The translations under genes were made by a program, and so were the position numbers. The notes under the pieces were generated by a model. It made no database searches and was not told the DNA's origin. It saw only the letters and a list, made by a program, of their open reading frames with translations. From a virus (taxonomy: Duplodnaviria; Caudoviricetes), in IMG/VR virus record IMGVR_UViG_3300029825_000757, positions 1 to 26,777 of that record: a stretch of DNA of 26,777 nt; one strand, 5' to 3'. Numbering within the stretch: position 1 is the stretch's first letter; the number at the start of each line of letters is the position of its first letter. Shown in pieces: positions 86-20,722 of the stretch.

Positions 86-162
86 TGACGTACGAGGAAA
101 CATATCAATAGGTTTTTCGCTGCTTTTTCGGAAACCGTAGTATGAGGAAACATGTCAAATAC
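86..162 (-). repeat. Two direct repeats, 50 bp apart, resembling the rlmD attB left arm (PIDMFPRTS and VFDMFPHTT)
   Basis: TTGATATGTTTCCTCGTAC (90-108) versus TTGACATGTTTCCTCATAC (140-158), 17/19 identical. Both translate to the RlmD DMFPxT motif. Confidence 0.75.
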
Positions 163-2113
163 CAAAAACATCTTTTCTAAGTAATTTATAAGTATTAGTT
201 TCTGGTTTTACCAATGGGGCCATTGCATCACGTAAAAAAGTTGCTTTTGTATTTCCACATTGAGTTAATCGTAGAACTTTCCTAGTCTCAGTATAAAATG
301 TACCAGCTGCGGACTTCAAGTCATCTGTAGGATTTCCCCTCGCAATAGATTCATTTAATGCTTTAACTTTGATTGCTTTAATTTCATCAGTTTTTTCTTG
401 TTGATCACAAACCCAGCATAACTTCTCAATTATCTCATCTTCAAGTAAATAAGACTCGAGTTCACGTAACGATAGCACTGTGATTCCTTGTTTTTTTAGT
501 TCTTTAATCTCTTCCAGACTCCTATCATCCCTATCTATTAGTTTAATTATTGTATGATAGGGGTTCACTTTTTCTATCACGTCAAATAGCAATTTCTCTT
601 TTTCCTCAATATCTTTACAGCCGCCAACCGAACAGAACACTGCATTAGGGAATTCTTGTGAAAAGATATTTTTGTAACATAGCTCATCAAAGTTTGTATT
701 TCTTGCTCCTTCTGAACTGCCTTCGCAAAAAATTATGTAATTACCATCAGATACTCTTCTCATAACTGCACTACAAGATGATATATCCGACGTATTCTCT
801 TGAATTTTAAATGTAACTTGGTTATTTCCTTCTGCTAGTTTGATTGCTTCAAGGCACAAAATACTGATCATAACTGCCGGTCCATCTTCGATATACCAAC
901 ATCCAACCTCATTCTGTTGACTTAGAAGCCAATCTTTTGCTTTCTCAAGATACCTTTGATAACCTTCCGGTTTTAGCACACCTAAAGCAATCATAGCTAA
1001 ACAAGTAGAAAGGATATCGCCGCTAGTACGATTTGATGTAAGTGGCCATCCACCTGAGGTTAGTTGTGTTTGAAATAGCAACACTAAAGCTTGATCGAAA
1101 ATGCTAAGATTGATGTTTAATGGTTTTATGCGTTTCCAAGCAAAAGCAATCACACTTGCTATCGGTATGTAGTCGACAACAATTCTATTTATCCTTTTAT
1201 TTCCATCAGGTTCAGTGCAATACCGCTTCCATGGTTTTGAAACATCTACATTTCCTACGCATATTCCGTGCAACAACGCTTCTAAGCCAAATTTCGATGC
1301 TTTTCTAAGTAATAAGTCAGATCTGCAAAAAGAAAACAGCGTGAATCCTGAATGTACAGGGTCAATTCCCGATTGGTAAGTTTGCGATACTTCTTGTGTA
1401 TATCTATTAACCCAAGGGTCATATTCATTTAAATTGAACCACTCAACCGTTCTAAAGAAAGTCGCCGCTATAAAGTCTTCTTCCTCATCCCTTGCACGTA
1501 AGAAGTATTGGAAACGGTTAACCTCATTTAGCAAATCAGTAAGCTCAGGTAATGACAATTCCCGATCTCTTGCCTTTTCTATAATGTTATCTTCCCAATA
1601 ACGTAAATGGCCGTACTCTTCAAAGACTCTACAAATTGCACATCTCCAGCTTTCTCTAATCTCATCCGACGAAACAAGGGATTCTCCTTGGCTTTTAAAA
1701 TAAATAAGTGCTTCAAGATCAGCGTTGGTTCGGGCCTCAAGTGCGATAGGATACAACCATGCATGAGCTTTCTCTACCCCAGGTTGAACATAAATAAAGG
1801 CTTCATGAAACTTTTCGCTCACAGTAATTAACTCCGGAAAAAAAACACTGAATCCAACAAGACCCATTTGTAAATATTCTTCTTCCTCTACTAGCACATA
1901 TGGTAACCTGCGTTTTACTGCATCAAAATCAATAAACTCATTTAACTCATAGATTCGTGATTGTATCTTGTCAATGTCTTTTACAGAAGGAACACCTAAC
2001 CAACAAGAATTAATCCGCTCAGTTAATTGCCATATCTTAGAGATAGTTCTTGGAGTTGCTCGTGCAATAAAACGATTCATTCTAGATACATCTAATATAT
2101 TATTACTCATCAT
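155..2113 (-). CDS. Cargo protein: unknown N-terminus + prenyltransferase/squalene-cyclase (QW) repeats + C-terminal OLD-family-like TOPRIM domain; possible defence effector
   Basis: 652-aa ORF with RBS GAAAGGAG. QW motifs LLFQTQLTSGGW and KAKDWLLSQQNEVGCW; TOPRIM motifs IIFCEG, SVGG, LIDRD and RELESYL. Confidence 0.7.
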   Translation of the reverse strand: MMSNNILDVSRMNRFIARATPRTISKIWQLTERINSCWLGVPSVKDIDKIQSRIYELNEFIDFDAVKRRLPYVLVEEEEYLQMGLVGFSVFFPELITVSEKFHEAFIYVQPGVEKAHAWLYPIALEARTNADLEALIYFKSQGESLVSSDEIRESWRCAICRVFEEYGHLRYWEDNIIEKARDRELSLPELTDLLNEVNRFQYFLRARDEEEDFIAATFFRTVEWFNLNEYDPWVNRYTQEVSQTYQSGIDPVHSGFTLFSFCRSDLLLRKASKFGLEALLHGICVGNVDVSKPWKRYCTEPDGNKRINRIVVDYIPIASVIAFAWKRIKPLNINLSIFDQALVLLFQTQLTSGGWPLTSNRTSGDILSTCLAMIALGVLKPEGYQRYLEKAKDWLLSQQNEVGCWYIEDGPAVMISILCLEAIKLAEGNNQVTFKIQENTSDISSCSAVMRRVSDGNYIIFCEGSSEGARNTNFDELCYKNIFSQEFPNAVFCSVGGCKDIEEKEKLLFDVIEKVNPYHTIIKLIDRDDRSLEEIKELKKQGITVLSLRELESYLLEDEIIEKLCWVCDQQEKTDEIKAIKVKALNESIARGNPTDDLKSAAGTFYTETRKVLRLTQCGNTKATFLRDAMAPLVKPETNTYKLLRKDVFGI

Positions 2114-2339
2114 ATTTTAAATACGCTCCTTTCCAAAATTACAAGACAATTTTAGAAACCTCGATAAGAAAATTGTCATGAGTTCGTTCTAATATTCCTT
2201 TAGAGTTTGTTGATTGGCCCCCTACTCACTAATAAATAACAACATTCTCAATATTACTGTGTATACTTAACCAACTATAGTCAATTTTAGAGTAAAAAAA
2301 CGCCAACAAAGAGACATGTTTCCCAACCTGCCAATAAAG

Positions 2340-3911
2340 TTATATTTCTATATCAACTTCAACATCAGACTTAAACTCGACAACCAGTTTATCATCAAAT
2401 ACCGTTATCTTCTCAATAAGCCGCCTTACTAGTAAATCATCATATTCCTCAAGCTCATAAGACTGCTCATTCAAGAACTCTGTCATCTCAGCAATTCTTT
2501 GCCTTTTCCCTTCTCGCTCTGCATTTTCAGCTAATGTGTTTTGCTTCAATTCTCGTAGTCGGTAAATCTCATCTGCTACCTCTTTATAATCAGCTTTGGA
2601 ATTTGCCAGTCTAAGAAGCTCGTTTTGCAATTCATCCAATTTGGTATCAATATCATCGGTTGCTTTGTCATTTTCTTCATTAAGCACTGTAGCTATATTC
2701 TCCTGCAAAGTGGGAAGGAAAGTGTCCTTACTGCCCAACACCTCATTGATGGCTCTAACAACCACTGCTTGTAATACCTCTTCTTTAATCGTCGGCGATG
2801 TACACTCAGATCCTTTTTCTTCCAGACGGCTAACACATCGCCACACAATAGATTTACACCCCCGATTGTTCCAGTGCACCCGACGGTAAATTTCACCGCA
2901 CTGCCCACAAAACACAATACTCGATAAAGCATACTTGCTGCTATACACTCTCTTCTTTCCACCTTTACCTGAACGTAAATTTGCTCTTCTAACCACTTCT
3001 TCTTGTACCTGCATGAAAATTTCACGCGGGATAATTGGCTCATGGCTGTTTTCTACATAATACTGAGGGACAATTCCGTTATTGACCACTCTCTTCTTGG
3101 AAAGAAAATCAACGGTATATGTTTTTTGCAGTAAAGCGTCACCGATATACTTTTCATTCTGAAGTATCTTTTTGAGTGTCTCTGGTCTCCACCTAGGCTT
3201 GTTAGCTGCAGTAAGAATGCCGTCAGCTTCCAACCCACGACCTATTTGTAGAAGGCTTGCCCCTTCAAGATACTCTCGGTATATACGTTTTACTACCACT
3301 GCTTCTTCAGGCACAATAACCAGCTGTTTATTCTCATCTTTGGTATACCCTAAGAACCTCTTATGATTGACATGTACCTCCCCCTGCTGGTAACGGTATT
3401 GAATACCGAGCTTCACGTTTTGACTTAAGGATTGGCTTTCCTGTTGGGCTAAGGAGGCCATAATAGTCAGAAGAACTTCACCTTTAGAGTCCATTGTATT
3501 AATGTTCTCTTTTTCAAAGAACACAGGTATGTTTTTATCTTTAAGCTGCCTGATGTACTTCAAGCAATCCAGAGTATTTCGGGCAAAGCGGCTGATGGAC
3601 TTTGTAATGATCATGTCGATTTTACCCTTCATACACTCTTCAATCATCCGGTTAAACTCTTCACGCTTTTTGGTATTGGTTCCTGAGATTCCATCATCCG
3701 CAAAGATACCAGCTAGTTCCCATTCAGGGTTATTATTTATAAAGTTTGTGTAATGTTCAATTTGTACCTCATAGCTGGAAGCTTGTTCTTCGCTATCTGT
3801 AGAAACTCGGCAATATGCTGCTACTCTAAGCTTTTGCTTCTCTTCAGGCTTTACATTATTTCCAACACGAGCACGGGCAGGTATGACCTTAACATTTCTA
3901 TTAATCGCCAT
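2340..3911 (-). CDS. Large serine recombinase (resolvase + recombinase + Zn ribbon + coiled coil)
   Basis: VAAYCRVST catalytic motif, [22 protein letters not shown]...WRC zinc ribbon. Confidence 0.97.
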
Positions 3912-4329
3912 TCTTTATCACCTCGCTTTCTATCAGACTATAAACATACTCTGCTTGTCTAAACGGATCGTCATAAAGCTGTTCAGGTGTCGGCATACTA
4001 AAACGGAACTGTTTGATGACATTTATTTTAGGAGAGGGCTTTTTGATTTTCCCAAGCATTTGCGCTCTTTTTAACTTTTCAGCTTGTACCTGCTCAAAAA
4101 TATCGTTGTCAATAATCTGAGGGTAGTAGTCATCACCAAGGTATCGTTTGTTGGTGAGCATCTTAGCCACAGTTGAGTGATAGCGCTTTATACCAGCTTT
4201 CTCAGCCGCATCTATTAGAGAAAGCCCTGAAAGATAAGCTTTATATAACTCTTTTAACTTCAATACCGCTGGCTGATCAATCACTGCTTTTCCATCTTGA
4301 ATCATATATCCATAAAGCACATGTTGCAT
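3901..4329 (-). CDS. Small recombinase-domain protein lacking the catalytic domain (middle gene of the triplet)
   Basis: YGY...[22 protein letters not shown] matches the recombinase DNA-binding domain; abuts or overlaps both neighbouring genes. Confidence 0.85.
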
Positions 4330-5895
4330 TTATCTCTCCATCCTTTCCCTTAATGTAAGTCCACATTTCAAGCTAAAACCAATTTCAGCCGGTGAAAAGA
4401 CAATAATCCTCTCGACAAAACGCTCAAACATATCCTCATTAAAGCTTTCTATGTCCTCCGCTTTTGACACGTATTTAATGAGCTGGTTTAATTCAGCGGC
4501 TATGGTCATTCCACCGTTGATGCAGCGATATAGTGCAGTTTCTTGTTCTTTGAGTAGCTCAGCTTCCAGACGTAGTTCGTTGTTCTGCTTATTATAAAGA
4601 GCAGGGTCAAGATACCCTTTTACCATAAGATTAACAAGTACCTTAACCTGCTCTGTGTTTTCTTCTATCTTGGACTCTATGTCTTGAATTTTCACAAGGT
4701 TATCTGTATAATTTGTAGCTTTTAAACTTTGTAACAGCGGCCTTAAAATAAGTTTATGGCTAAAGATAAGTTTATTTATCATGGTTACAAAGGCTTGATG
4801 TATGTTATCTTCCCTGATATAAAGCATAGAGCATTCGTCAATGTTTGCGATGTGTTTAGAGCAACTCCACGCTATATATTTGTTGTTGCCCGATCCATAA
4901 ATCCTTCGTTTAAAGGTACTCCCACATTCGTAGCATTTAATCTTTCCGGAGAAAGGATAGCGGTTCGAATATTTACTACTACCTTTTTTTATACCCTTTT
5001 CTTTACGACGCTGCTTAATAACCTTGCTTACTGCCTCGAAATCTTCATGGCTTATAATCGCTTCATGATGATTTTCAATAAGGTATTGGTCTTTTTCACC
5101 CTTGTTCGTATGCCTAATAAAGTTTTCATCTGTGTAGGTTTTTTGCAGAAGCAAATCTCCGGTATACTTTTCATTCCCGAGAATGCTTCCGACAGTAGTA
5201 GAAGTCCACTGGCCACCTCTTTTTGTAGGAACTCCTTCAGCCTTTAATTCTTGAGCAATTCTCTGCGTTCCCTTTCCAGATAAAGCATCAGCAAAAATTC
5301 GCTTAACAACCTTTGCCTGCTCCTTATTTACAACTATCTGACCATTCACATAATCAAAGCCATAAGGCGGATATGAAAGCTTATAAGTCCCATTTTGAAA
5401 TCGTTTCTGAATAGACCACTTATTGTTTTCAGAAATCGAAATTGACTCGCTTTCAGCAAGGCTACTCAAAATAGTCAGCATTAGTTCGCTTTCCATGGAT
5501 TGCGTGTTAATGTTCTCTTTCTCAAAGTAAATGTAAACGCCAAGATCGTTTAGTTTTCTGACTAGTTCCAGACAGTCTGTTGTATTTCTAGCAAGTCTAC
5601 TGATCGATTTGGTAACTATAAAATCTATCTTTTTATTTTCACAATCAGAGATAAGTCGTAGGAGTTCTGTTCGATTTTCCTTTTTCGTACCAGAAATACC
5701 CTCATCATAATAAATACCTACAAACTCCCAATCTGGATTAGCTTTGATGTAAGATTCGTAATGAGTCTTTTGTGCCTCCAGACTGATAAGCTGCTCTGTA
5801 CTATCTGTAGAAACCCGGGCATAAGCTGCAACTCTTAGCTTTGGTCCTTTTGATGTAGGAATTTTACTTTTTGTTATCTTCGTCACCTTTCTCAC
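4330..5895 (-). CDS. Large serine recombinase (first of triplet)
   Basis: VAAYARVST, TKSISRLARN, NEKYTGD, CYECG...WSC. Start moved to GTG at 5895 (MRKVTKI), behind RBS AGGGAGGTG; GTG at 5898 is also possible. Confidence 0.95.
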   Translation of the reverse strand: MRKVTKITKSKIPTSKGPKLRVAAYARVSTDSTEQLISLEAQKTHYESYIKANPDWEFVGIYYDEGISGTKKENRTELLRLISDCENKKIDFIVTKSISRLARNTTDCLELVRKLNDLGVYIYFEKENINTQSMESELMLTILSSLAESESISISENNKWSIQKRFQNGTYKLSYPPYGFDYVNGQIVVNKEQAKVVKRIFADALSGKGTQRIAQELKAEGVPTKRGGQWTSTTVGSILGNEKYTGDLLLQKTYTDENFIRHTNKGEKDQYLIENHHEAIISHEDFEAVSKVIKQRRKEKGIKKGSSKYSNRYPFSGKIKCYECGSTFKRRIYGSGNNKYIAWSCSKHIANIDECSMLYIREDNIHQAFVTMINKLIFSHKLILRPLLQSLKATNYTDNLVKIQDIESKIEENTEQVKVLVNLMVKGYLDPALYNKQNNELRLEAELLKEQETALYRCINGGMTIAAELNQLIKYVSKAEDIESFNEDMFERFVERIIVFSPAEIGFSLKCGLTLRERMER

Positions 5896-5921
5896 CACGT
5901 TCACCTCCCTTCGGGTATGTG

Positions 5922-5953
5922 ACATATTACCCCCTTGTGCCCGGTATATCAAG
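5922..5953 (-). promoter_or_regulatory. Putative sigma-A promoter for the recombinase operon
   Basis: TTGATA-N17-TAATAT just upstream of the RBS; a degenerate relative of the motif at 13582 and 14832. Confidence 0.5.
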
Positions 5954-6179
5954 GATTATAGGGCATAATCTGTGCTAACATGGGCGAGAAAGATTTACGG
6001 TTTAAAAACATGATCTTGGTAAACTCTTCTTCTGAGATAAAACCCTTCTCAAGCATCTGGCGCAGTAAATTCTCCGCTCTATAATAGTCAAATTCGCGTT
6101 GAAGCACCTCTGGGTCTAAGGGTTTTCGTTTAGAAAATGTCTGCGATTCTGTTTTCTCTATAATTTTTGTTATCTGCAT
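5949..6179 (-). CDS. SHOCT-like small protein, possible recombination directionality factor
   Basis: MLEKGFISEEEF SHOCT-type motif; RBS GGAGGT; lies directly upstream of the recombinase triplet. The RDF role is inference only. Confidence 0.75.
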   Translation of the reverse strand: MQITKIIEKTESQTFSKRKPLDPEVLQREFDYYRAENLLRQMLEKGFISEEEFTKIMFLNRKSFSPMLAQIMPYNP

Positions 6180-6210
6180 ATAGGCTTACCTCCAATTCTA
6201 CAGGGAGACC

Positions 6211-6250
6211 CCTGCACCTATATGCAAAAAATCACTGGGAATCGAACCCC
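6211..6250 (-). promoter_or_regulatory. Element-specific bipartite motif, copy A (GGGGTTCGA-N10-TTTTTYGCWTATAGSTG)
   Basis: 28/40 ungapped identity with 24248-24287; both copies are intergenic and precede a hairpin and an RBS. Confidence 0.65.
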
Positions 6251-6256
6251 TAAATA

Positions 6257-6298
6257 AGCAAAAGACCCGAAGAGTTGTTACACTCCTCGGGTCATGCT
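6257..6298 (-). terminator. Intrinsic terminator after the holin
   Basis: GACCCGAGGAGT-GTAACA-ACTCTTCGGGTC stem-loop followed by TTTTGCTT. Confidence 0.75.
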
Positions 6299-6311
6299 TT
6301 AATACTAGATA

Positions 6312-6725
6312 TTAATTATTTTTGTCAGGCTCATCGGAACGTAACTGTTCAAGCACTTCTTTAAGCTTATCGGGGATGGGGAGTCCAATAGCCACGACAT
6401 TCTCTAATATGGATATTCCCTCATTACTCAAGTAAAAGAAAATGACGGCGGTCCGAATCGCATTACCGCCGCCCAGAACTTGACTGTCAATAATATGTCC
6501 GACACCCACAAGTGTAAAAATAAGTACTTTTTTAAAGATACCCCTAGCACCAGTTTCACTTGATAGTGCTTTTTCCATAACCGCACGCATTACCCCAGTA
6601 ATGTAGTCAATGATCACAAAAGCGATTAGAGCATATATAAATCCATCAAAACCACCTAAAAACCACCCCAGCCACCCGCCAATGGCGGCAAAAATTATCT
6701 GAAAGTGCTTCCATATATCTTGCAA
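6312..6725 (-). CDS. Phage holin family protein (Phage_holin_4-like)
   Basis: Three hydrophobic segments; IDYITGV, GIFKK and FYLSNEGISILEN...GLPIP motifs; TTG start. Confidence 0.92.
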   Translation of the reverse strand: MQDIWKHFQIIFAAIGGWLGWFLGGFDGFIYALIAFVIIDYITGVMRAVMEKALSSETGARGIFKKVLIFTLVGVGHIIDSQVLGGGNAIRTAVIFFYLSNEGISILENVVAIGLPIPDKLKEVLEQLRSDEPDKNN

Positions 6726-6967
6726 TCCCGATCCACCCCCGTTGTTTCAGGAACGCCAGCTATATAGCCGAGCGTTCCTTTAGTCAGAAAATCTTCTTCC
6801 ATTGGAATCCGAAAACTTGGACCCCGCTCTCCACTAAGGGCCACACCTAACCGCCATTGGCCATCTTCTAGGCTTCCTGACTTATATGCGAAATTAAACC
6901 CTCCCCCTTTAGAAAACTCAATTAAAACTGGCCCCAACGAGAACGAGGTTTCTACTGCTTTCCCCCC
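6695..6967 (-). CDS. Putative -1 frameshift extension of the upstream holin-like protein
   Basis: Frame is open 6967-6695 with no RBS before TTG 6937; the slippery heptamer G GGA AAG at 6958-6964 lies within the short overlap with the upstream ORF. Confidence 0.5.
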   Translation of the reverse strand, partial: GGKAVETSFSLGPVLIEFSKGGGFNFAYKSGSLEDGQWRLGVALSGERGPSFRIPMEEDFLTKGTLGYIAGVPETTGVDRDCKIYGSTFR

Positions 6968-7356
6968 TCAACACCTTGCATTCCATTGTTCAAATAGACA
7001 CAGGACTCAATCAGGCTAGATAGGTACCCTTCTAGATCAGCTGTGACCTCCTGTAACTCCTTAAGAGTTTCCTTGGTCAACCTTGCCTTGACAGCTTTTA
7101 ATACATCTGACTTAATCTGTTCTTTTTCTTCATCTTTTAATTTACCGCCGTTTCGTTCCTTTAGGCTATCAACAACTGTTTGTTGGGCTTCAAGAACAGC
7201 AGCCCGAACAACATTTTCAACAGAATTAATCACCCGATTCGCCACTTCATTCTTTGACCTCTGGCGCAAATAGTCTGCTGCAAAAGCTACAGCAGCGCTT
7301 ACTGCAATAGCCATTAAAGGCAAAACTAGCTTTGTTACTTCGACAAATAAATCCAT
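6952..7356 (-). CDS. Holin-like membrane protein (LL-H-like; single N-terminal TM helix)
   Basis: Hydrophobic LVLPLMAIAVSAAVAFAA followed by a helical domain with QTVVDSLK and LIESCV; RBS AGGAGG; lies in the lysis position. Confidence 0.65.
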   Translation of the reverse strand: MDLFVEVTKLVLPLMAIAVSAAVAFAADYLRQRSKNEVANRVINSVENVVRAAVLEAQQTVVDSLKERNGGKLKDEEKEQIKSDVLKAVKARLTKETLKELQEVTADLEGYLSSLIESCVYLNNGMQGVEGGKQ

Positions 7357-7376
7357 TCCTCGATCCTCCTCTCCAT

Positions 7377-7410
7377 AAAAAAAAGACTCTTTGCTCAGTG
7401 AGCAAGCGTC
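7377..7410 (-). terminator. Intrinsic terminator after the head closure gene
   Basis: GACGC-TTGCTC-ACT-GAGCAA-AGAGTC stem-loop followed by a T8 tract. Confidence 0.7.
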
Positions 7411-7415
7411 CCAAA

Positions 7416-7733
7416 TTATACTTTCAACATGGCTTTGATTTCCAAGTATTCGTTTCGGTACTTGATGTTATCAATGAACTGAATATTGTACTGCTTTCCC
7501 TTAAAACGTATGATCATCTCTTCGTTTAAACCAGCTCTATATCTAATGGTGAATACCACCATTTTCTCAAGATGGATGGATGCAGCGGTAAAGTATACCT
7601 TTCCGTAAAGGTTAGATACTTTTGCCCATAAATTGGCTACTTCTACCCATTCTTTGGTTTGATTTCCATACATATCCTCAGTAATTCTAAGCTCTACAAG
7701 GGTAATTCTATGCCTAAGTTCACCGATGCTCAC
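7416..7733 (-). CDS. Phage head closure / head-tail adaptor protein
   Basis: IGELRHRITL...D.YGN...W...WAKV...FTIRYR...YNI..I pattern; follows the connector gene. Confidence 0.9.
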   Translation of the reverse strand: MSIGELRHRITLVELRITEDMYGNQTKEWVEVANLWAKVSNLYGKVYFTAASIHLEKMVVFTIRYRAGLNEEMIIRFKGKQYNIQFIDNIKYRNEYLEIKAMLKV

Positions 7734-7737
7734 ACTA

Positions 7738-8022
7738 TCACCAACTTTCCAGCCGATAGGGTGATAAGAGCCTTTTAATTACATCCTCCACAACTTTCAT
7801 ATCAAGATCTTCCCGGTGCTCGTACATGTTGGCGGTGATAAACAGGATAGCTTGATCTACTGTTTTGGGGACTTCCTCAAATTCATCAATACTCATTCTC
7901 AGTACCAATTCGCACAGCTGACTAGCTGTTTGAAGAAGATGGGCGATGAGCATATCTTCCTCATCGCCATCGACCCTCAAATATGATTTTGCTTCTACCA
8001 GCGTTACGGCCAATACGCTCAC
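7738..8022 (-). CDS. Head-tail connector protein (HK97 gp6-like)
   Basis: VTLVEAKSYLRVDGDEED...AILFITANMYEHRE...LLSPYR; follows the capsid gene. Confidence 0.92.
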   Translation of the reverse strand: MSVLAVTLVEAKSYLRVDGDEEDMLIAHLLQTASQLCELVLRMSIDEFEEVPKTVDQAILFITANMYEHREDLDMKVVEDVIKRLLSPYRLESW

Positions 8023-8037
8023 CTCCAGTTCCTTACT

Positions 8038-9234
8038 CTAGGCATTTTTCATTTGTAGATATTTTATCGTTTCAGGCAATATGAGTTTCCCATCCACCCT
8101 TTGGGTTGCGATAAAGCCTACTTGTCCGGTTACTGCGAATAGCTCATTTAGACGTTTAAAGTTCCTGCCTTGGCGATCAGCAATCCAGTAATAGCCAAAA
8201 TCCCCGAAGGCAATAGCCTTATTTCCGGCTGTTGCCTCGGGGACATAGGGAGAGGTAACTAGAGGTCTAGATAAGATTGTATCTGGATGACCGAGGGCCA
8301 CCGATGGCTGCCAAATATACTGACCGTTGTTATCCTTGAGTTTTCTAAGCAGTTTTACCGTTGAATCGTTCATCACAAATTTGGCACGTTTGCGATACGG
8401 AGCTTTTAGCGAGTAGAACAGGTCGAAGATCTCATCAAAGGTGATGGCAGCCACAGCGGCCGCAGTAGTGCCTAACTGCCCACCACCGACATCATTGAAA
8501 ATACCCGTGGGCTTACCTACGCCATCTCCATTAAAGAAAGCATCTTCTTCCTTGTTGCCAATTCTTCGTCCAAACTCGGTAGCAATATAACTAGGAAGGT
8601 CAAAGACACTGTCATTCAAGAGTTCCTCAGAAACCTTAATCATGGTAGCTACTTTGTGAGCACTGAGAAAAGTTTGAGAAAAGCTATCATCTGATTCTTG
8701 AATGGGACCTTCTTCATCCACCCATGTAGCTTCCCCTTTGGTAGCAACAATAGGGATTTTTCTGTCACCGGATGACGTTGTAATCACCTTAGCTAAGCTT
8801 CGAAAGACGTTTTCTTCCTCTAGTGCCTGTACTAGAGTACGCTCAAATTCATCGGGGACAAGGTATCCGCCTTCGCTTTCTTCACCAATTTTTAGAGAGT
8901 TCATGACTTCGTAGCCATGCTTATTTCTTATAGCCTTCCAAAAAGCGTCGGAGTATTCCTTGGTAGCCCGAGGATTGCTTTTCACCTTTTCGATCATCGG
9001 GTCGTTTTTGATGGCAGCAGATGTAGCCTTTGAGAGTTCGAAATCAATAGTCTGCTGTCTTTCTAGCCTTTCTATTTCTCTACCGAGGTTCACAACTTCA
9101 GCTTCCATCCTGTCGTAGGTAGCAGTATCCTCGGCGGAGATAAGACCATCATCTCCTCTTTTGGAGTCTAAAAAAGCCTTGGCATCTGCCCAGGCTTTAG
9201 CTCTTTTTTCTCTAAGTTGTAGAATCTGATTCAT
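8038..9234 (-). CDS. HK97-family major capsid protein
   Basis: N-terminal coiled-coil delta domain, GGYLVPDEF, WVDE, GDGVGKPTGI, FGDF, RVDG. Confidence 0.96.
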   Translation of the reverse strand: MNQILQLREKRAKAWADAKAFLDSKRGDDGLISAEDTATYDRMEAEVVNLGREIERLERQQTIDFELSKATSAAIKNDPMIEKVKSNPRATKEYSDAFWKAIRNKHGYEVMNSLKIGEESEGGYLVPDEFERTLVQALEEENVFRSLAKVITTSSGDRKIPIVATKGEATWVDEEGPIQESDDSFSQTFLSAHKVATMIKVSEELLNDSVFDLPSYIATEFGRRIGNKEEDAFFNGDGVGKPTGIFNDVGGGQLGTTAAAVAAITFDEIFDLFYSLKAPYRKRAKFVMNDSTVKLLRKLKDNNGQYIWQPSVALGHPDTILSRPLVTSPYVPEATAGNKAIAFGDFGYYWIADRQGRNFKRLNELFAVTGQVGFIATQRVDGKLILPETIKYLQMKNA

Positions 9235-11259: not shown

Positions 11260-11568
<309 letters not shown>

Positions 11569-14919: not shown

Positions 14920-16161
14920 CTATTCATCTGCCTTCACCCCAGGTACATCCCTATATGGTATTTTCCTTCCGCCACGAACGAGAATCACATTTTCCATAGC
15001 GCCAACCTGTCCAATATATCTTTTCACTATTACATCGCAAAACTTCTCATCCAGTTCCACTGTGTAGCAAACCCGGTCTGTCTGTTCACAGGCGATTAAG
15101 GTACTACCAGAACCGCCAAAGGGGTCTAGAACAATACATCCTGTCAGACTGGAATTCAAAATCGGGTATGCCACCAGTGGCACTGGCTTCATAGTCGGAT
15201 GATCGTTGTTTTTTCTAGGCCTATCAAACTCCCAGATAGTGGACTGCTTGCGGTCGGCATACCAAGCGTGTTTCCCTTTTTTCTTCCAGCCAAAAAGGAT
15301 AGGTTCATGCTGCCACTGATAAGGAGAGCGCCCTAGCACCAGTGATTGCTTTTTCCAGATACAAGTACCAGAAAGGTAAAAACCTGCATCAGAGAATGCC
15401 TTTCGGAAATTCAAGCCCTCCGTATCAGCGTGGAACACATAGATGCTCGCATCCTTGGCCATAGCCTCTTCAGTAAGAGTGAAAGCGTCTAGAAGAAACT
15501 GATAGAATTTTTCATCAGCCATATTATCGTTTTTGATTTTACCCGCTGTACCTTCGTAGTTTACGTTATATGGTGGGTCGGTTATCACGAGGTTTGCTAC
15601 CTTACCATCCATCAAAAGCTTAAAAGTATCAGTATGAGTAGAATCACCACAGACAACGCGGTGATTACCCAAAAGCCATAAATCACCCGCTTGGGTTATT
15701 GCGGGTTTCTGTAGTTCACCTTCCACATCAAAGTCATCATCCCGAACTCCATCTTGCAGCAGATCTTTAAAAAGCCCATCGATTTCAGCAAGATCAAAAC
15801 CTGTCATGGTAACATCAAAGTCCTCGGCTTGCAAATCGGAAATGAGCAAAACTAGCTTATCTTTGTCCCAGTCACCTGAAACCTTATTAAGAGCTATATT
15901 TAATGCTTTCTCTTTTTCTTCATCCAATTCCACAACAACGCAGTCAATTTGCGAAGCACCGTTGGCCACTAATATCTTTAGTCTTTGGTGACCGCCAACC
16001 ACGTTGCCAGTATTCTTGTTCCAGATGATTGGCTCAACATATCCAAACTCCTCCATGGAGCGCTTTAGCTTTTCGTATTCAGGATCGCCAGGTTGCAAAT
16101 CCTTGCGAGGGTTATACCCAGCAGGTATTAACTGTTCGACTGGAATTTTCTCAATCAGCAT
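14920..16161 (-). CDS. ParB-like N-terminal domain + N6A/N4C DNA methyltransferase (beta order)
   Basis: YNPR and GGHQR in the ParB/Srx-like domain; TDPPYN; HPTMKP; LDPFGGSGST. Confidence 0.93.
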   Translation of the reverse strand: MLIEKIPVEQLIPAGYNPRKDLQPGDPEYEKLKRSMEEFGYVEPIIWNKNTGNVVGGHQRLKILVANGASQIDCVVVELDEEKEKALNIALNKVSGDWDKDKLVLLISDLQAEDFDVTMTGFDLAEIDGLFKDLLQDGVRDDDFDVEGELQKPAITQAGDLWLLGNHRVVCGDSTHTDTFKLLMDGKVANLVITDPPYNVNYEGTAGKIKNDNMADEKFYQFLLDAFTLTEEAMAKDASIYVFHADTEGLNFRKAFSDAGFYLSGTCIWKKQSLVLGRSPYQWQHEPILFGWKKKGKHAWYADRKQSTIWEFDRPRKNNDHPTMKPVPLVAYPILNSSLTGCIVLDPFGGSGSTLIACEQTDRVCYTVELDEKFCDVIVKRYIGQVGAMENVILVRGGRKIPYRDVPGVKADE

Positions 16162-17317
16162 GGTCTTCTGCCGCCTTTCTCAATTCGTAATACATATCAA
16201 CTTCTTCCCACGGAAATAAGCAAGAATTAAAATGCCCATACACAGCTGTATCAGCATAAATCGCTCTATAAAGCTCTAACTTCTCAACGATAGCCGCAGG
16301 CCGTAGGTCGAACAACTTTAATACAATTTTAGAAAGACTCTCATCTGTAAGTGTTGAAGTACCAAAAGAATGTACATTCACCGCTACAGGATTGGCTTTA
16401 CCAATGGCATAAGAAAGAGCGACCTCACATCTACCTGCGAGACCGCTCGAAACGATGTTCTTAGCAATGTATCGTGCCATATATGCACCACTTCGGTCTA
16501 CTTTAGTTGGGTCTTTTCCCGAAAGCGCTCCTCCACCATGAGAAGCTAGACCACCGTAGGTATCTACCATAACTTTTCTACCTGTTAACCCTGTATCAGC
16601 ACTGGGACCGCCCTCGACAAATCGGCCAGAAGGATTTATCAAAATTTCAGTATCTTCATCTATAGGGAAATCTTCGAAACAAGGCCATAGTACCTTAGTG
16701 ATAATATCCTCTCGTAACTGTTCTTGAGTCTTGCTATCAATATGCTGCACTGAGACTACAATAGCCTTCACTCGCACTGGCCGCTCACCTTCATATTCCA
16801 CAGTCACTTGTGCTTTACCATCTGGCAAAATACCCTTAATGAGTTTGCCCTTTCGGCACTGGTCAATGCGCTTTACGATACGATGAGAAAGAACTAAAGG
16901 TAATGGTAGTTTTTCCATCGTTTCACTAGTAGCATAGCCATACATAGTACCTTGATCGCCTGCACCAATGGAACTATATGGATCATACACTCCAGTCCTA
17001 GCTTCAAGTGCCCTGTTTACCCCAGCCGCGATGTCTTTGCTCTGTTGGTGAACAAAAACAGATACCTTGTATAACTTCGGATTGTAGCCAACCTCACGGA
17101 GTACATTTCTCACCACAAACGGAATTTCCACTTTTTCGCTACAGGTGATTTCACCCGCCACGATGATTTTACCCTTTGTCGCCAAAACCTCAGCCGCAAC
17201 ACGTGAAGCCATATCTTTTCTAAGACAAGCATCCAAAATGCTATCAGCAATAAGATCACATAACTTATCTGGGTGACCCATACAAACGCTTTCTGAGGTT
17301 AATAGTCTTTTACCCAT
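16151..17317 (-). CDS. metK: S-adenosylmethionine synthetase
   Basis: TSESVCMGHPDK, GAGDQG, GGPSADTGLTGRK, HGGGALSGKDPTKVDRS, YGHF. Confidence 0.96.
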   Translation of the reverse strand: MGKRLLTSESVCMGHPDKLCDLIADSILDACLRKDMASRVAAEVLATKGKIIVAGEITCSEKVEIPFVVRNVLREVGYNPKLYKVSVFVHQQSKDIAAGVNRALEARTGVYDPYSSIGAGDQGTMYGYATSETMEKLPLPLVLSHRIVKRIDQCRKGKLIKGILPDGKAQVTVEYEGERPVRVKAIVVSVQHIDSKTQEQLREDIITKVLWPCFEDFPIDEDTEILINPSGRFVEGGPSADTGLTGRKVMVDTYGGLASHGGGALSGKDPTKVDRSGAYMARYIAKNIVSSGLAGRCEVALSYAIGKANPVAVNVHSFGTSTLTDESLSKIVLKLFDLRPAAIVEKLELYRAIYADTAVYGHFNSCLFPWEEVDMYYELRKAAEDHAD

Positions 17318-18500: not shown

Positions 18501-18958
18501 TACTTGCCATACAAAAGCAATGCTAGGTGCTGAAGTGCTCGATTCTTCTTATTGTAGGCTGAAGAACGCTCAATATTAAAGTGGTCACAGATCTCATAAA
18601 CTGCATCAATTTGCTTGTGTTTTTCATTAAGGTAGAATACCTCGAGAACAAATCGTTCGTCCTCAGATAACGCATTCCACGCTGGCTTAAACCATTCCAT
18701 GTATTCTAGAGCTTGACGGTAGCGTTCTTTTAATACATCAATTTCATCAATGGAGCCAACTAGCTTTCTTTCTCCAGCTTTCGGGTCATGAGCAGATGGC
18801 ATACCGTCTAGAACAGGAGTTGCTGGAGAGGCCATCTTTTCGTGAATAGTAGCAATATCTTCATTGGTATGCTCAATAATGTATTGCATACTACTGTAAT
18901 CCTTCAACGCATTAATAGCTGCCTGCTTCTTATCTAGGTATTGCCAAACAATATTCAT
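18500..18958 (-). CDS. Late transcriptional regulator (ArpU/RinA/DUF1492-like, C-terminal sigma-4-like HTH)
   Basis: LSEDERFVLEVFY...ICDHFNIERSSAYNKKNRAL; lies between the helicase and HNH. Confidence 0.75.
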   Translation of the reverse strand: MNIVWQYLDKKQAAINALKDYSSMQYIIEHTNEDIATIHEKMASPATPVLDGMPSAHDPKAGERKLVGSIDEIDVLKERYRQALEYMEWFKPAWNALSEDERFVLEVFYLNEKHKQIDAVYEICDHFNIERSSAYNKKNRALQHLALLLYGK

Positions 18959-20318
18959 GACTTTGAGCCTCCTTCAAGTTTACTTTCACTGCTTCAATCA
19001 GTGCTGACTGAGTTCCATTTTTTCTTTTCAACGCTTCCATAACCTGCTCATCAATAGTATCCTTGGTGATAATGTGGTGAATTACAACAGTCTCCTTTTG
19101 CCCTTGACGCCAGAGCCGAGCATTGGTTTGCTGGTAAAGCTCTAAACTCCATGTGAGCCCAAACCAGACAAGGGTTGATCCTCCAGCTTGCAAGTTTAGA
19201 CCATGACCTGCTGAAGCTGGGTGGATAATGGCAATTGGTATCTTGCCTTCATTCCACCGTTTAATGCTTTCAGCCGAATCCAACCTTTCAGCTGGGAAGC
19301 GTTCTAGGATTCTTTGTAGGTCATGCTTAAACCAGTAGGCTATTAGCACCGGCTTACCATTGGCTGCTTCTATTAAATCTTCTAGTATCTCCAGCTTCCT
19401 GTCATGTACGATGGCTACAGCACCATTCTCATCATAGACAGCACCGTTAGCCATTTGTAGTAACTTCCCACTAAGGGCTGCAGCGTTGACTGCATCAATT
19501 TCTTTCTCCTTTAAGGCCACTACCATCTCCCGTTTCATCGTCTGGTAGTGCTTTTCTTCACTAGCAGACATCCTAACAAGCACTTCATTCATCACAAGTT
19601 CGGGCAATTCCAAGTAGTCAGCACCTTTCATGCTGATCGTGATATCAGAAATCAAACGATAGATTTCTTCCTCTGCACCAGGCTTTGGCTTGTAGGAGAA
19701 AACAATCTGCTGATTACGCTTATCAGGTACAAAGTAGTCCTCTCTAAACCTGCCAATAAAGCGCCCAAGCCTTTGACCCATATCCAAAAGCCGATACTCT
19801 GCCCATAAATCCATTAGTCCATTACTAGAAGGTGTTCCAGTTAGCCCCACAATCCTTTTTACTTTTGGTCTCACTTTCATAAGGCTTCTAAAGCGCTTCG
19901 CCTGATGGGACTTGAAGGAAGAAAGCTCATCAACCACAACCATATCGTAGTCGAAAGGTAGACCACTTTTATTTATAAGCCAGTCCACGTTCTCCCTGTT
20001 AATAAGGTAGACTTGCGCCTTCTGCATCAGTGCTGCTTTCCTCTGGGCTTCATTCCCAATAGCTACACTGTATTTTAAACCTTTCAGGTGATCCCACTTT
20101 TCAATCTCAGCAGGCCATGTATCTCTTGCCACTCGTAAAGGTGCTATCACAAGTACCTTGCGAATTAAAAAGCTATCTAGGGTAAGATCGAAGATAGAGG
20201 AAAGTGTTATAACCGTCTTACCTTAACCTAAGCCCATATCCAACAGGAGTGCAGCAACCGGCTTCTCTAACAAATAATCGATAGCATACTGCTGATATCC
20301 GTGAGGAATGAACTTCAC
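18930..20318 (-). CDS. SNF2-family helicase with an in-frame TAA inside motif I (pseudogene or recoded gene)
   Basis: GTG at 20318 behind GGAGGTG reads MKFIPHGYQ...LDMGLG*GKTV..., in frame with the 406-aa ORF (DELSS, LTGTP, HGLNLQ, QTNARLWRQGQ). TAA is at 20223-20225. Confidence 0.9.
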
Positions 20319-20596
20319 TAGGCATCACCTCCCGAGATCATTGACTCTATCTGCCTTTCATCATTCAAAACATATACTTTAAAGCCAAGGCTTCTTAACA
20401 TCTCGTGGCGCTTTTTCTGTAAAGGTCGAGGCTTTAACCCCGGCGCTTTCACTTCAACAAACGATATTCTCCCACCCGGTAAAAGCAGAAGGCGATCTGG
20501 CATTCCATCGTAACCGGGTGAAACGAATTTTAATGCCAAACCCCCTACCCGTTTTGCCGCCTTGACCAATTTCTGTTCTAGTTGCTTTTCCTGCAT
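20318..20596 (-). CDS. VRR-NUC domain nuclease
   Basis: GMPDRL...FVEVKAPG..PRPLQ (PD-D/ExK); ATG at 20596 behind AAGGAGG. Confidence 0.92.
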   Translation of the reverse strand: MQEKQLEQKLVKAAKRVGGLALKFVSPGYDGMPDRLLLLPGGRISFVEVKAPGLKPRPLQKKRHEMLRSLGFKVYVLNDERQIESMISGGDA

Positions 20597-20615
20597 TTTT
20601 TGCCTCCTTACATCA

Positions 20616-20722
20616 GGGGGGTGACGCTCTGTAAAGGTCATCTATATAACTTTATATATATATACTTATTTTATTAGCCTATAAGAAAAGTCTATATAAC
20701 AAGCATCACCGAGCATCACCTT
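20616..20722. other. Putative replication origin
   Basis: AT-rich core flanked by TCTATATAAC x2 (20641, 20691), AGCATCACC x2 (20702, 20712) and an inverted GGTGACGCTC (20620); directly downstream of the primase. Confidence 0.6.

Follow-up and report, generated by a model that had tools for sequence, protein, structure and literature searches.

The window analysed here, by which we mean the whole stretch of DNA (26,777 nucleotides), is an entire 26.8-kb viral contig with polymerase, primase, VRR-NUC, SNF2 helicase, terminase, portal, ClpP and capsid genes. Phages of Ca. Heliusviridae are described as having nine genes in common, the helicase among them (PMC9226167). Eight of these nine genes lie in the window, and the ninth, DUF2800, would lie past the contig end. 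For this tally of eight we took PF10991 to be DUF2815. The stretch at 155-9234 holds head genes followed by a holin and three serine-recombinase genes, without matches to tail or endolysin genes; a 652-aa ORF within it (155-2113) has no Pfam match. Genes for a SAM synthetase and a DNA methylase separate the small terminase gene from the large one (14920-17317), and a 101-aa ORF without a Pfam match lies between the terminase and portal genes (11260-11565), its start resembling a GIY-YIG motif.

The helicase gene is interrupted within the stretch for its ATP-binding loop, motif I (Walker A). As the original prediction stated, the minus strand at 20240..20214 reads GAT ATG GGC TTA GGT TAA GGT AAG ACG, and GGT-TAA-GGT places six extra bases, a stop and a second Gly codon, within motif I (DMGLG-stop-GKT). 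Conceptual translation from the GTG at 20318 gives VKFIPH...LLLDMGLG(stop)GKTV..., with this single internal stop and a frame that is then open to 18930; removal of the stop and one Gly leaves a 460-aa helicase product, and the description of the remaining gene as intact and in frame is likewise correct. The part after the stop matches SNF2-rel_dom, DEAD and Helicase_C in Pfam. Both the SNF2 N-terminal and the helicase C-terminal domains are present, and motif I, DxGLGK(T/S), is complete only when read across the gap. An intact relative (L166) matched PDB 1z63, an SNF2/RAD54 helicase, from motif I onward (E 1e-17). Near-identical contigs from sequencing runs of three studies (X3, X5 and X7) cross the junction without an indel, as do contigs of runs X1 and X11, which are possibly not independent of the window. 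These indel-free contigs rule out an assembly error as the cause of the gap. The features of the locus are collected in Table 1.

Table 1. Features of the helicase locus in the window, with positions in window coordinates.
Feature	Position	Strand	Remarks
SNF2-family helicase gene	18930..20318	-	begins with GTG; a hop would give 460 aa; automatic ORF calling gives a 406-aa piece without motif I
Predicted take-off codon GGT (Gly31)	20226..20228	-	read from sequence
Stop codon TAA, adjoining the take-off codon	20223..20225	-	read from sequence
Predicted landing codon GGT	20220..20222	-	Walker A Lys codon AAG follows at 20219-20217
Predicted long-range mRNA helix, 5' strand	20307..20315	-	gene nt 4-12, AAG TTC ATT
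Predicted long-range mRNA helix, 3' strand	20230..20238	-	gene nt 81-89; one base separates it from the take-off codon
GGAGGTGATGCC, ribosome-binding site; probably what is left of the tail of a lost HNH gene	20321..20332	-	
VRR-NUC nuclease gene	20318..20641	-	stop overlaps the helicase start; C-terminal SGGDA

The interruption recurs in relatives of this helicase. Scanning with a degenerate pattern for D-M-G-L-G-TRR-G-K-T returned 100 viral loci, all 100 of which encode this helicase, with TAA in 46, TGA in 54 and neither TAG nor TGG in any; the 80 loci with full flanks are all open for 415-470 codons. With one genome per species the same pattern gave 59 loci, 56 of them helicases, mostly from Bacillota. 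Three control scans, with a sense first codon or a non-G second landing base, produced 17 matches (4 ordinary intact helicases and 13 unrelated sequences) and no helicase with an insert, Tyr/Cys-Gly and stop-HGN inserts lying outside the scanned set. Searches blind to the site found 59 intact, 20 gapped and 1 cut-off gene among the 80 closest viral relatives, and the gap was present in 22 of 76 readable loci of a second clade and in 1 of 19 of a third. One host family, represented by 401 genomes, gave 62 matches, of which 7 were gapped; 44 of the 62 were read directly (3 unparsed) and the remainder judged from the match table. A distant helicase clade (L013, L008, L090) has a different N-terminus and a 6-nt gap with a local hairpin, and 1 of its 19 readable close relatives is gapped; in L013 the VRR-NUC gene is not directly upstream of the helicase.

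Overall we counted about 340 gapped loci at this codon, with gaps of 4-10 nt in all three frames. Lengths other than 6 nt were 4 nt (22 loci), 5 nt (94), 7 nt (18), 8 nt (4), 9 nt (10) and 10 nt (1), in a set that, like that used for dN/dS, leaves out three gapped genes broken downstream (L236, L386, L403); these three are included in the count of downstream breaks given below. Gaps of 1-3 nt were absent among the matches listed (120 loci), and gaps longer than 10 nt were absent among the 42 loci of the full length scan. An altered genetic code is ruled out: TAA, TGA and TAG are each found at the site, and the majority of gap lengths would shift the reading frame. Among 137 non-redundant gapped alleles, a stop begins the gap in 129 (TGA 77, TAG 34, TAA 18), with 8 alleles lacking it, and the final three gap bases are GGN in 116, AGN in 17 and GAC in 4. 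The predicted landing codon is often an inexact match (GGA in 49/137, AGN in 17/137), and the GAC of four alleles is no Gly-like codon. Eight loci with 4-nt gaps (L259, L293, L295, L326, L338, L348, L365 and L483) carry TGAC or TGAT and no Gly-like landing codon, and they resemble an RF2-type +1 site. The take-off codon is GGT or GGC in 184 of 186 gapped loci, in a search that did not force that base, versus 84 of 132 intact loci.

Gaps also occur at two neighbouring codons. Twelve loci, as well as L535 and L572, carry a Gly-stop-Gly gap two codons earlier, at Gly29, and L470 has one at Leu30 that reads CTT TAG CTA (Leu-stop-Leu, junction near 2511), with the downstream frame open for 431 codons and no clear helix assigned. 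CTT TAG CTA is presumably the very sequence of the classic synthetic stop-hop. When 2 x 401 genomes were scanned for the Gly29 pattern, 8 matches were obtained, of which only L572 was a helicase, the others being near control level. A hop of the P-site tRNA would yield DMGLGKT in Gly31, Gly29 and Leu30 alleles alike, whereas neither readthrough nor any one frameshift would do so.

Next to the take-off codon lies a predicted mRNA helix of 9 bp, in which gene bases 4-12 (codons 2-4) pair with bases 89-81. In the window sequence this helix is paired in both the minimum-energy and the centroid fold. A duplex of -6 kcal/mol or lower is predicted in 121 of 132 gapped alleles versus 0 of 65 intact alleles, and in 0 of the 23 intact alleles that also begin M-K/R-F. 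Among gapped alleles codon 2 is AAG in 153/165 and codon 3 is TTC in 154/165; Gly29 is encoded by GGC in 179 of 186 gapped loci, in a search not forcing it, versus 23 of 132 intact ones. Pair 12:81 covaries from A-U to G-C (15/1/4/71) in 8 separate groups on the tree and ranks 9-10 of 6441 pairs by mutual information, while pair 5:88 ranks at 125-245, a G at base 5 being accompanied by a C at base 88 in 6 of 6 alleles. When codons were exchanged at random for synonymous ones, 2% of trials on the window sequence equalled the real duplex; among 40 gapped alleles, the share was 5% or less in 35. The top mutual-information pairs, which lie upstream of the start, were rejected as an artefact of spacer-length shifts. 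Pairing of the upstream GCC with the take-off codon is not claimed, as these columns are invariant and the adjacent pair -2:90 holds in 58 of 165 alleles.

Alleles with the gap at Gly29 have a helix of different sequence that lies 6 nt earlier, with 9 of 9 pairs in 10 of the 12 loci; at least 8 pairs in this register were present in 0 of 238 Gly31-gapped and 6 of 86 intact sequences. Nine gapped alleles without the long helix were tested: in seven the same strand takes part in a significant local hairpin, and in the other two (L231 and L044) neither structure reaches significance. Folding of the whole region was no better than that of shuffled sequences (z -0.67), and a free search for any upstream partner separated the classes poorly, finding one in 137/137 gapped but also in 64/79 intact alleles.

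Because the relatives carry gaps of 4 to 10 bases at this point, mostly beside a conserved predicted helix, we consider it likely that the gap in motif I is decoded by a programmed short ribosomal hop (translational bypass), so that the usual loop, DMGLGKT, would be restored. Translation would halt with peptidyl-tRNA-Gly paired to GGU and the A site occupied by UAA, the tRNA-Gly would let go of its weak wobble pair, and the ribosome would slide 6 bases forward and re-pair on the second GGU (the next G/A-G-N in relatives), with decoding resuming at the Lys codon AAG. In the model for T4 gene 60, pairing of the exiting mRNA is proposed to drive the ribosome, with 26 nt between the P site and the structure (bioRxiv 10.1101/2024.12.09.627546). 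Because the helicase helix ends directly beside the take-off codon, and the gene 60 model needs 26 nt, this helix cannot be fully formed at take-off. It might zip from its far end as the mRNA exits the ribosome, pushing the ribosome forward; alternatively, its role might be to slow or space ribosomes. The helix also covers the start region and could in that way space ribosomes or tie hopping to initiation. That it has a role in hopping at all is our inference.

The main rival is a mixture of frameshifting and readthrough without any hop, in which gaps of 6 and 9 nt would be read through, those of 5 and 8 nt crossed by a -1 shift and those of 4, 7 and 10 nt by a +1 shift, so that the P-loop would gain one to three residues. 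With gaps of 5, 6 and 7 nt the result would always be G-x-G-K-T, the imperfect landing codons would be accounted for, and the GGU UGA C of the 4-nt alleles resembles the RF2 shift site. Such recoding requires, however, three mechanisms acting on one conserved signal. A loop that tolerates additional residues would be expected to carry simple sense inserts as well, and none was found in the scans (Tyr/Cys-Gly and stop-HGN lying outside them); gaps ending in AGY would yield S-K-T with loss of the Gly, and the Gly29 and Leu30 alleles would yield still other loops. Taken over all alleles we regard this explanation as unlikely; for the TGAC alleles it may be true.

Removal of the gap from the RNA, or from a share of the DNA copies, before translation would also unify the differing gap lengths, and it could draw on the scatter of intact alleles through the gapped part of the tree (36 changes). 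Among the contigs of 8 runs none had lost the gap bases, though contigs drop rare variants; those of two runs labelled as RNA (X19 and X20, one of them probably DNA) do not span the junction of this allele. Bacteria are not known to splice out inserts of 4-10 nt. Removal also leaves unexplained why a stop comes first in the gap and a Gly-like codon last, and we consider it very improbable.

Proteins of gapped genes diverge down to 37% identity (median 57%), yet in 269 of 282 gapped alleles the frame is open for 400 codons or more. For 89 disjoint gapped pairs dN/dS was 0.141 over codons 6-26 and 0.112 over the 35 codons after KT, compared with 0.133 and 0.070 for 22 intact pairs, values that are possibly biased since the pairs were picked by 5' nucleotide identity. 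Both parts of the gapped gene are under purifying selection. Further downstream breaks are present in 13/282 gapped versus 1/123 intact alleles (p=0.07), or in 11/235 versus 1/110 with duplicates collapsed (p=0.11), so that gapped copies may be somewhat more prone to decay. Three gapped helicases (L223, L225 and L206) have a single in-frame stop further down, with the frame open afterwards, which in L223 and L225 is at codon 35 after the gap.

That the gene is dead, disabled by a slippage duplication or bearing the footprint of an excised element, would agree with the somewhat commoner downstream breaks and with a window that has no tail genes and may be a defective element. Against this stand the long open frames of divergent proteins, dN/dS of about 0.1 on either side of the gap, a helix that is specific to gapped alleles and co-varies, and the place of the helicase among the nine genes described as common to Ca. 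Heliusviridae (PMC9226167), and we hold a dead gene to be extremely improbable. Two separate products, a 31-residue peptide and a downstream protein restarted with the aid of the SD-like TAAGG/TGAGG, are just as improbable, for although the gap resembles a Shine-Dalgarno sequence and GTG is the third codon after it in 42/137 alleles, this is the best of the candidate positions, with no start codon common to all (in the window this codon is GTT), and a restart would in any case begin beyond the Walker A Lys-Thr.

The original prediction had looked to recurrence in relatives with varied stops and dN/dS below 1 on both sides as support for recoding, and this is what the viral relatives display. 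The insertion is not unique to this genome, being carried by relatives and by the contigs of runs X3, X5 and X7, and the alternatives then offered, a slippage pseudogene or an excision footprint, fit poorly. The proposed Gly hop is strengthened by the varied stops and the dN/dS values, while the hop itself is still something that we infer from sequence. The prediction did not include the variation of the gap in length (4 to 10 nt) and among three neighbouring take-off codons, the conserved helix upstream or the linked HNH nuclease gene.

The distribution of an upstream nuclease gene may bear on the origin of the gap. An HNH_3 zinc-finger gene lies directly upstream of the helicase in 23/134 gapped and 5/76 intact alleles (p=0.035), the intact rows including L511 (actually a Gly29 gap) and the distant helicases L111 and L406. 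In all five HNH-bearing intact alleles, which represent two or three lineages only, the motif I ATG is changed to TGY, compared with 4 of 68 other intact alleles, and the motif I sequence is altered in all 28 HNH-bearing alleles. The exchange of Met for Cys in loci with an HNH gene and no gap (L121, L128, L131, L170 and L192) is a possible second route to nuclease immunity. A GGTGATGCC-like motif is present in 113/132 gapped versus 10/65 intact alleles; where a gapped locus has the HNH gene, the motif mostly encodes the C-terminal GGDA of the HNH protein. At several loci the HNH start replaces the helicase start behind VRR-NUC, and the HNH end supplies GGAGGTGATGCC; in the window, VRR-NUC itself ends on GGAGGTGATGCC. 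The window contains no member of the HNH family, and most gapped alleles likewise lack the HNH gene.

A tree built from the protein part after the gap has gapped and intact alleles intermixed, with 36 changes against a mean of 66 and a minimum of 56 in shuffles, the intact rows again including L511, L111 and L406. Several close pairs of gapped and intact alleles have 53-70% identity over the 90 nt leading up to the site and mostly 85-100% beyond it. Judging from these comparisons, the gap probably served a homing cassette as its self-protection (immunity) component, with the window having since lost the nuclease gene. The cassette would consist of the HNH gene, a new ribosome-binding site, replacement first 31 codons and the gap, and the HNH gene of the window would have been deleted between GGAGG repeats with only its tail kept. 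Both the nuclease activity of the HNH protein and its target are putative. Because L440 and L469 carry other nuclease-like genes (one with an AP2 match) directly upstream of intact helicases, several homing nucleases may contest the site. The gap looks more like a tolerated scar of a homing cassette than a device for regulated helicase output, which the original prediction had envisaged.

The closest parallel is the mobA/gene 60 system of phage T4, in which the upstream HNH nuclease gene is reported to be often lost while the gap is kept (bioRxiv 10.1101/2022.08.31.505936). Both systems have a Gly take-off codon followed by a stop, a Gly landing codon, mRNA structure upstream and an upstream HNH gene. 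In the helicases the stop directly follows the take-off codon in 129/137 alleles; the codons are matched as GGT/GGT in the window, as a GGN landing codon in 116/137 alleles and as Leu/Leu in L470; and the structure 5' of take-off is a long-range helix with covariation. The gene 60 gap is 50 nt long and lies in a topoisomerase with a GGA take-off codon, whereas the SNF2 helicase gaps are of 4-10 nt, follow GGY and vary in length, frame and take-off codon. The T4 structure is described as set 26 nt from the P site, whereas the helicase helix uses the start-codon region and ends beside the take-off codon. Codons 1-31 of the helicase lack the KKYK of the gene 60 nascent peptide, though any other peptide signal would be indistinguishable from conservation of the helicase itself; the helicase gap is too short for the T4 layout of A-site stem-loop and mini-SD, and the helicase gaps are found mostly in Bacillota phages. 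Because the 50-nt gap and the KKYK signal are absent, the helicase gap is not a member of the gene 60 type; it would work like the T4 mobA/gene 60 cassette without being one.

Other known cases share single features with the helicase gap. The nine bases at the window junction, matched Gly codons flanking a stop, would encode one residue, as in synthetic stop-hops; these were constructs in E. coli (Weiss et al. 1987, as described in Atkins et al. 2016, PMC5009743), whereas the helicase case is natural, conserved and equipped with a dedicated structure. The same review states that no natural in-frame stop hop was known at that time (Atkins et al. 2016, PMC5009743). The terminase of Streptomyces phage Hau3 is likewise a phage gene with a short gap, its bypass shown by mass spectrometry in E. 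coli and a 7-nt gap named for one relative; it differs in its trigger, the rare codon UUA, is proposed to be a regulatory sensor and was found in 3 of 100 genes, and the available text does not mention helicases (PMC10732093). Bypass elements of Magnusiomyces mitochondria are also short inserts that are skipped, several with imperfect take-off and landing matches, but they are organellar and described as independent of mRNA context (PMC5009743), whereas the context of the helicase gap is strongly conserved. No report of bypass in a phage SNF2 helicase was found in the literature searched, whose coverage excluded subscription journals and supplements.

Programmed bypassing has very few natural cases, the best known being from phage T4, and the comparison of sequences makes it probable that the helicase gap is a real, new form of it. 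We lean, if only modestly, towards a broader reading, that of a widespread natural family of short hops, including in-frame stop-hops, in a core phage helicase. A single design rule, pairing of the strand just behind the take-off codon, would have three different solutions, placed at three neighbouring codons and using two tRNAs; the helix with the start region may make hopping and initiation mutually exclusive; and an HNH cassette unrelated in gene and host to T4 mobA would have spread all of these. The family offers about 140 non-redundant natural variants of gap length, stop, landing codon and helix, and pairing of the exiting mRNA as a forward driver is therefore testable in a 100-base cassette. 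Helicase genes of many gut and environmental phages would then be annotated as truncated, as is seen in phage phi1605 (L520, MF172979), which has a 5-nt gap and whose GenBank helicase annotation begins downstream of motif I. The parallel with T4 suggests that homing nucleases have more than once used ribosome hopping to occupy a conserved motif.
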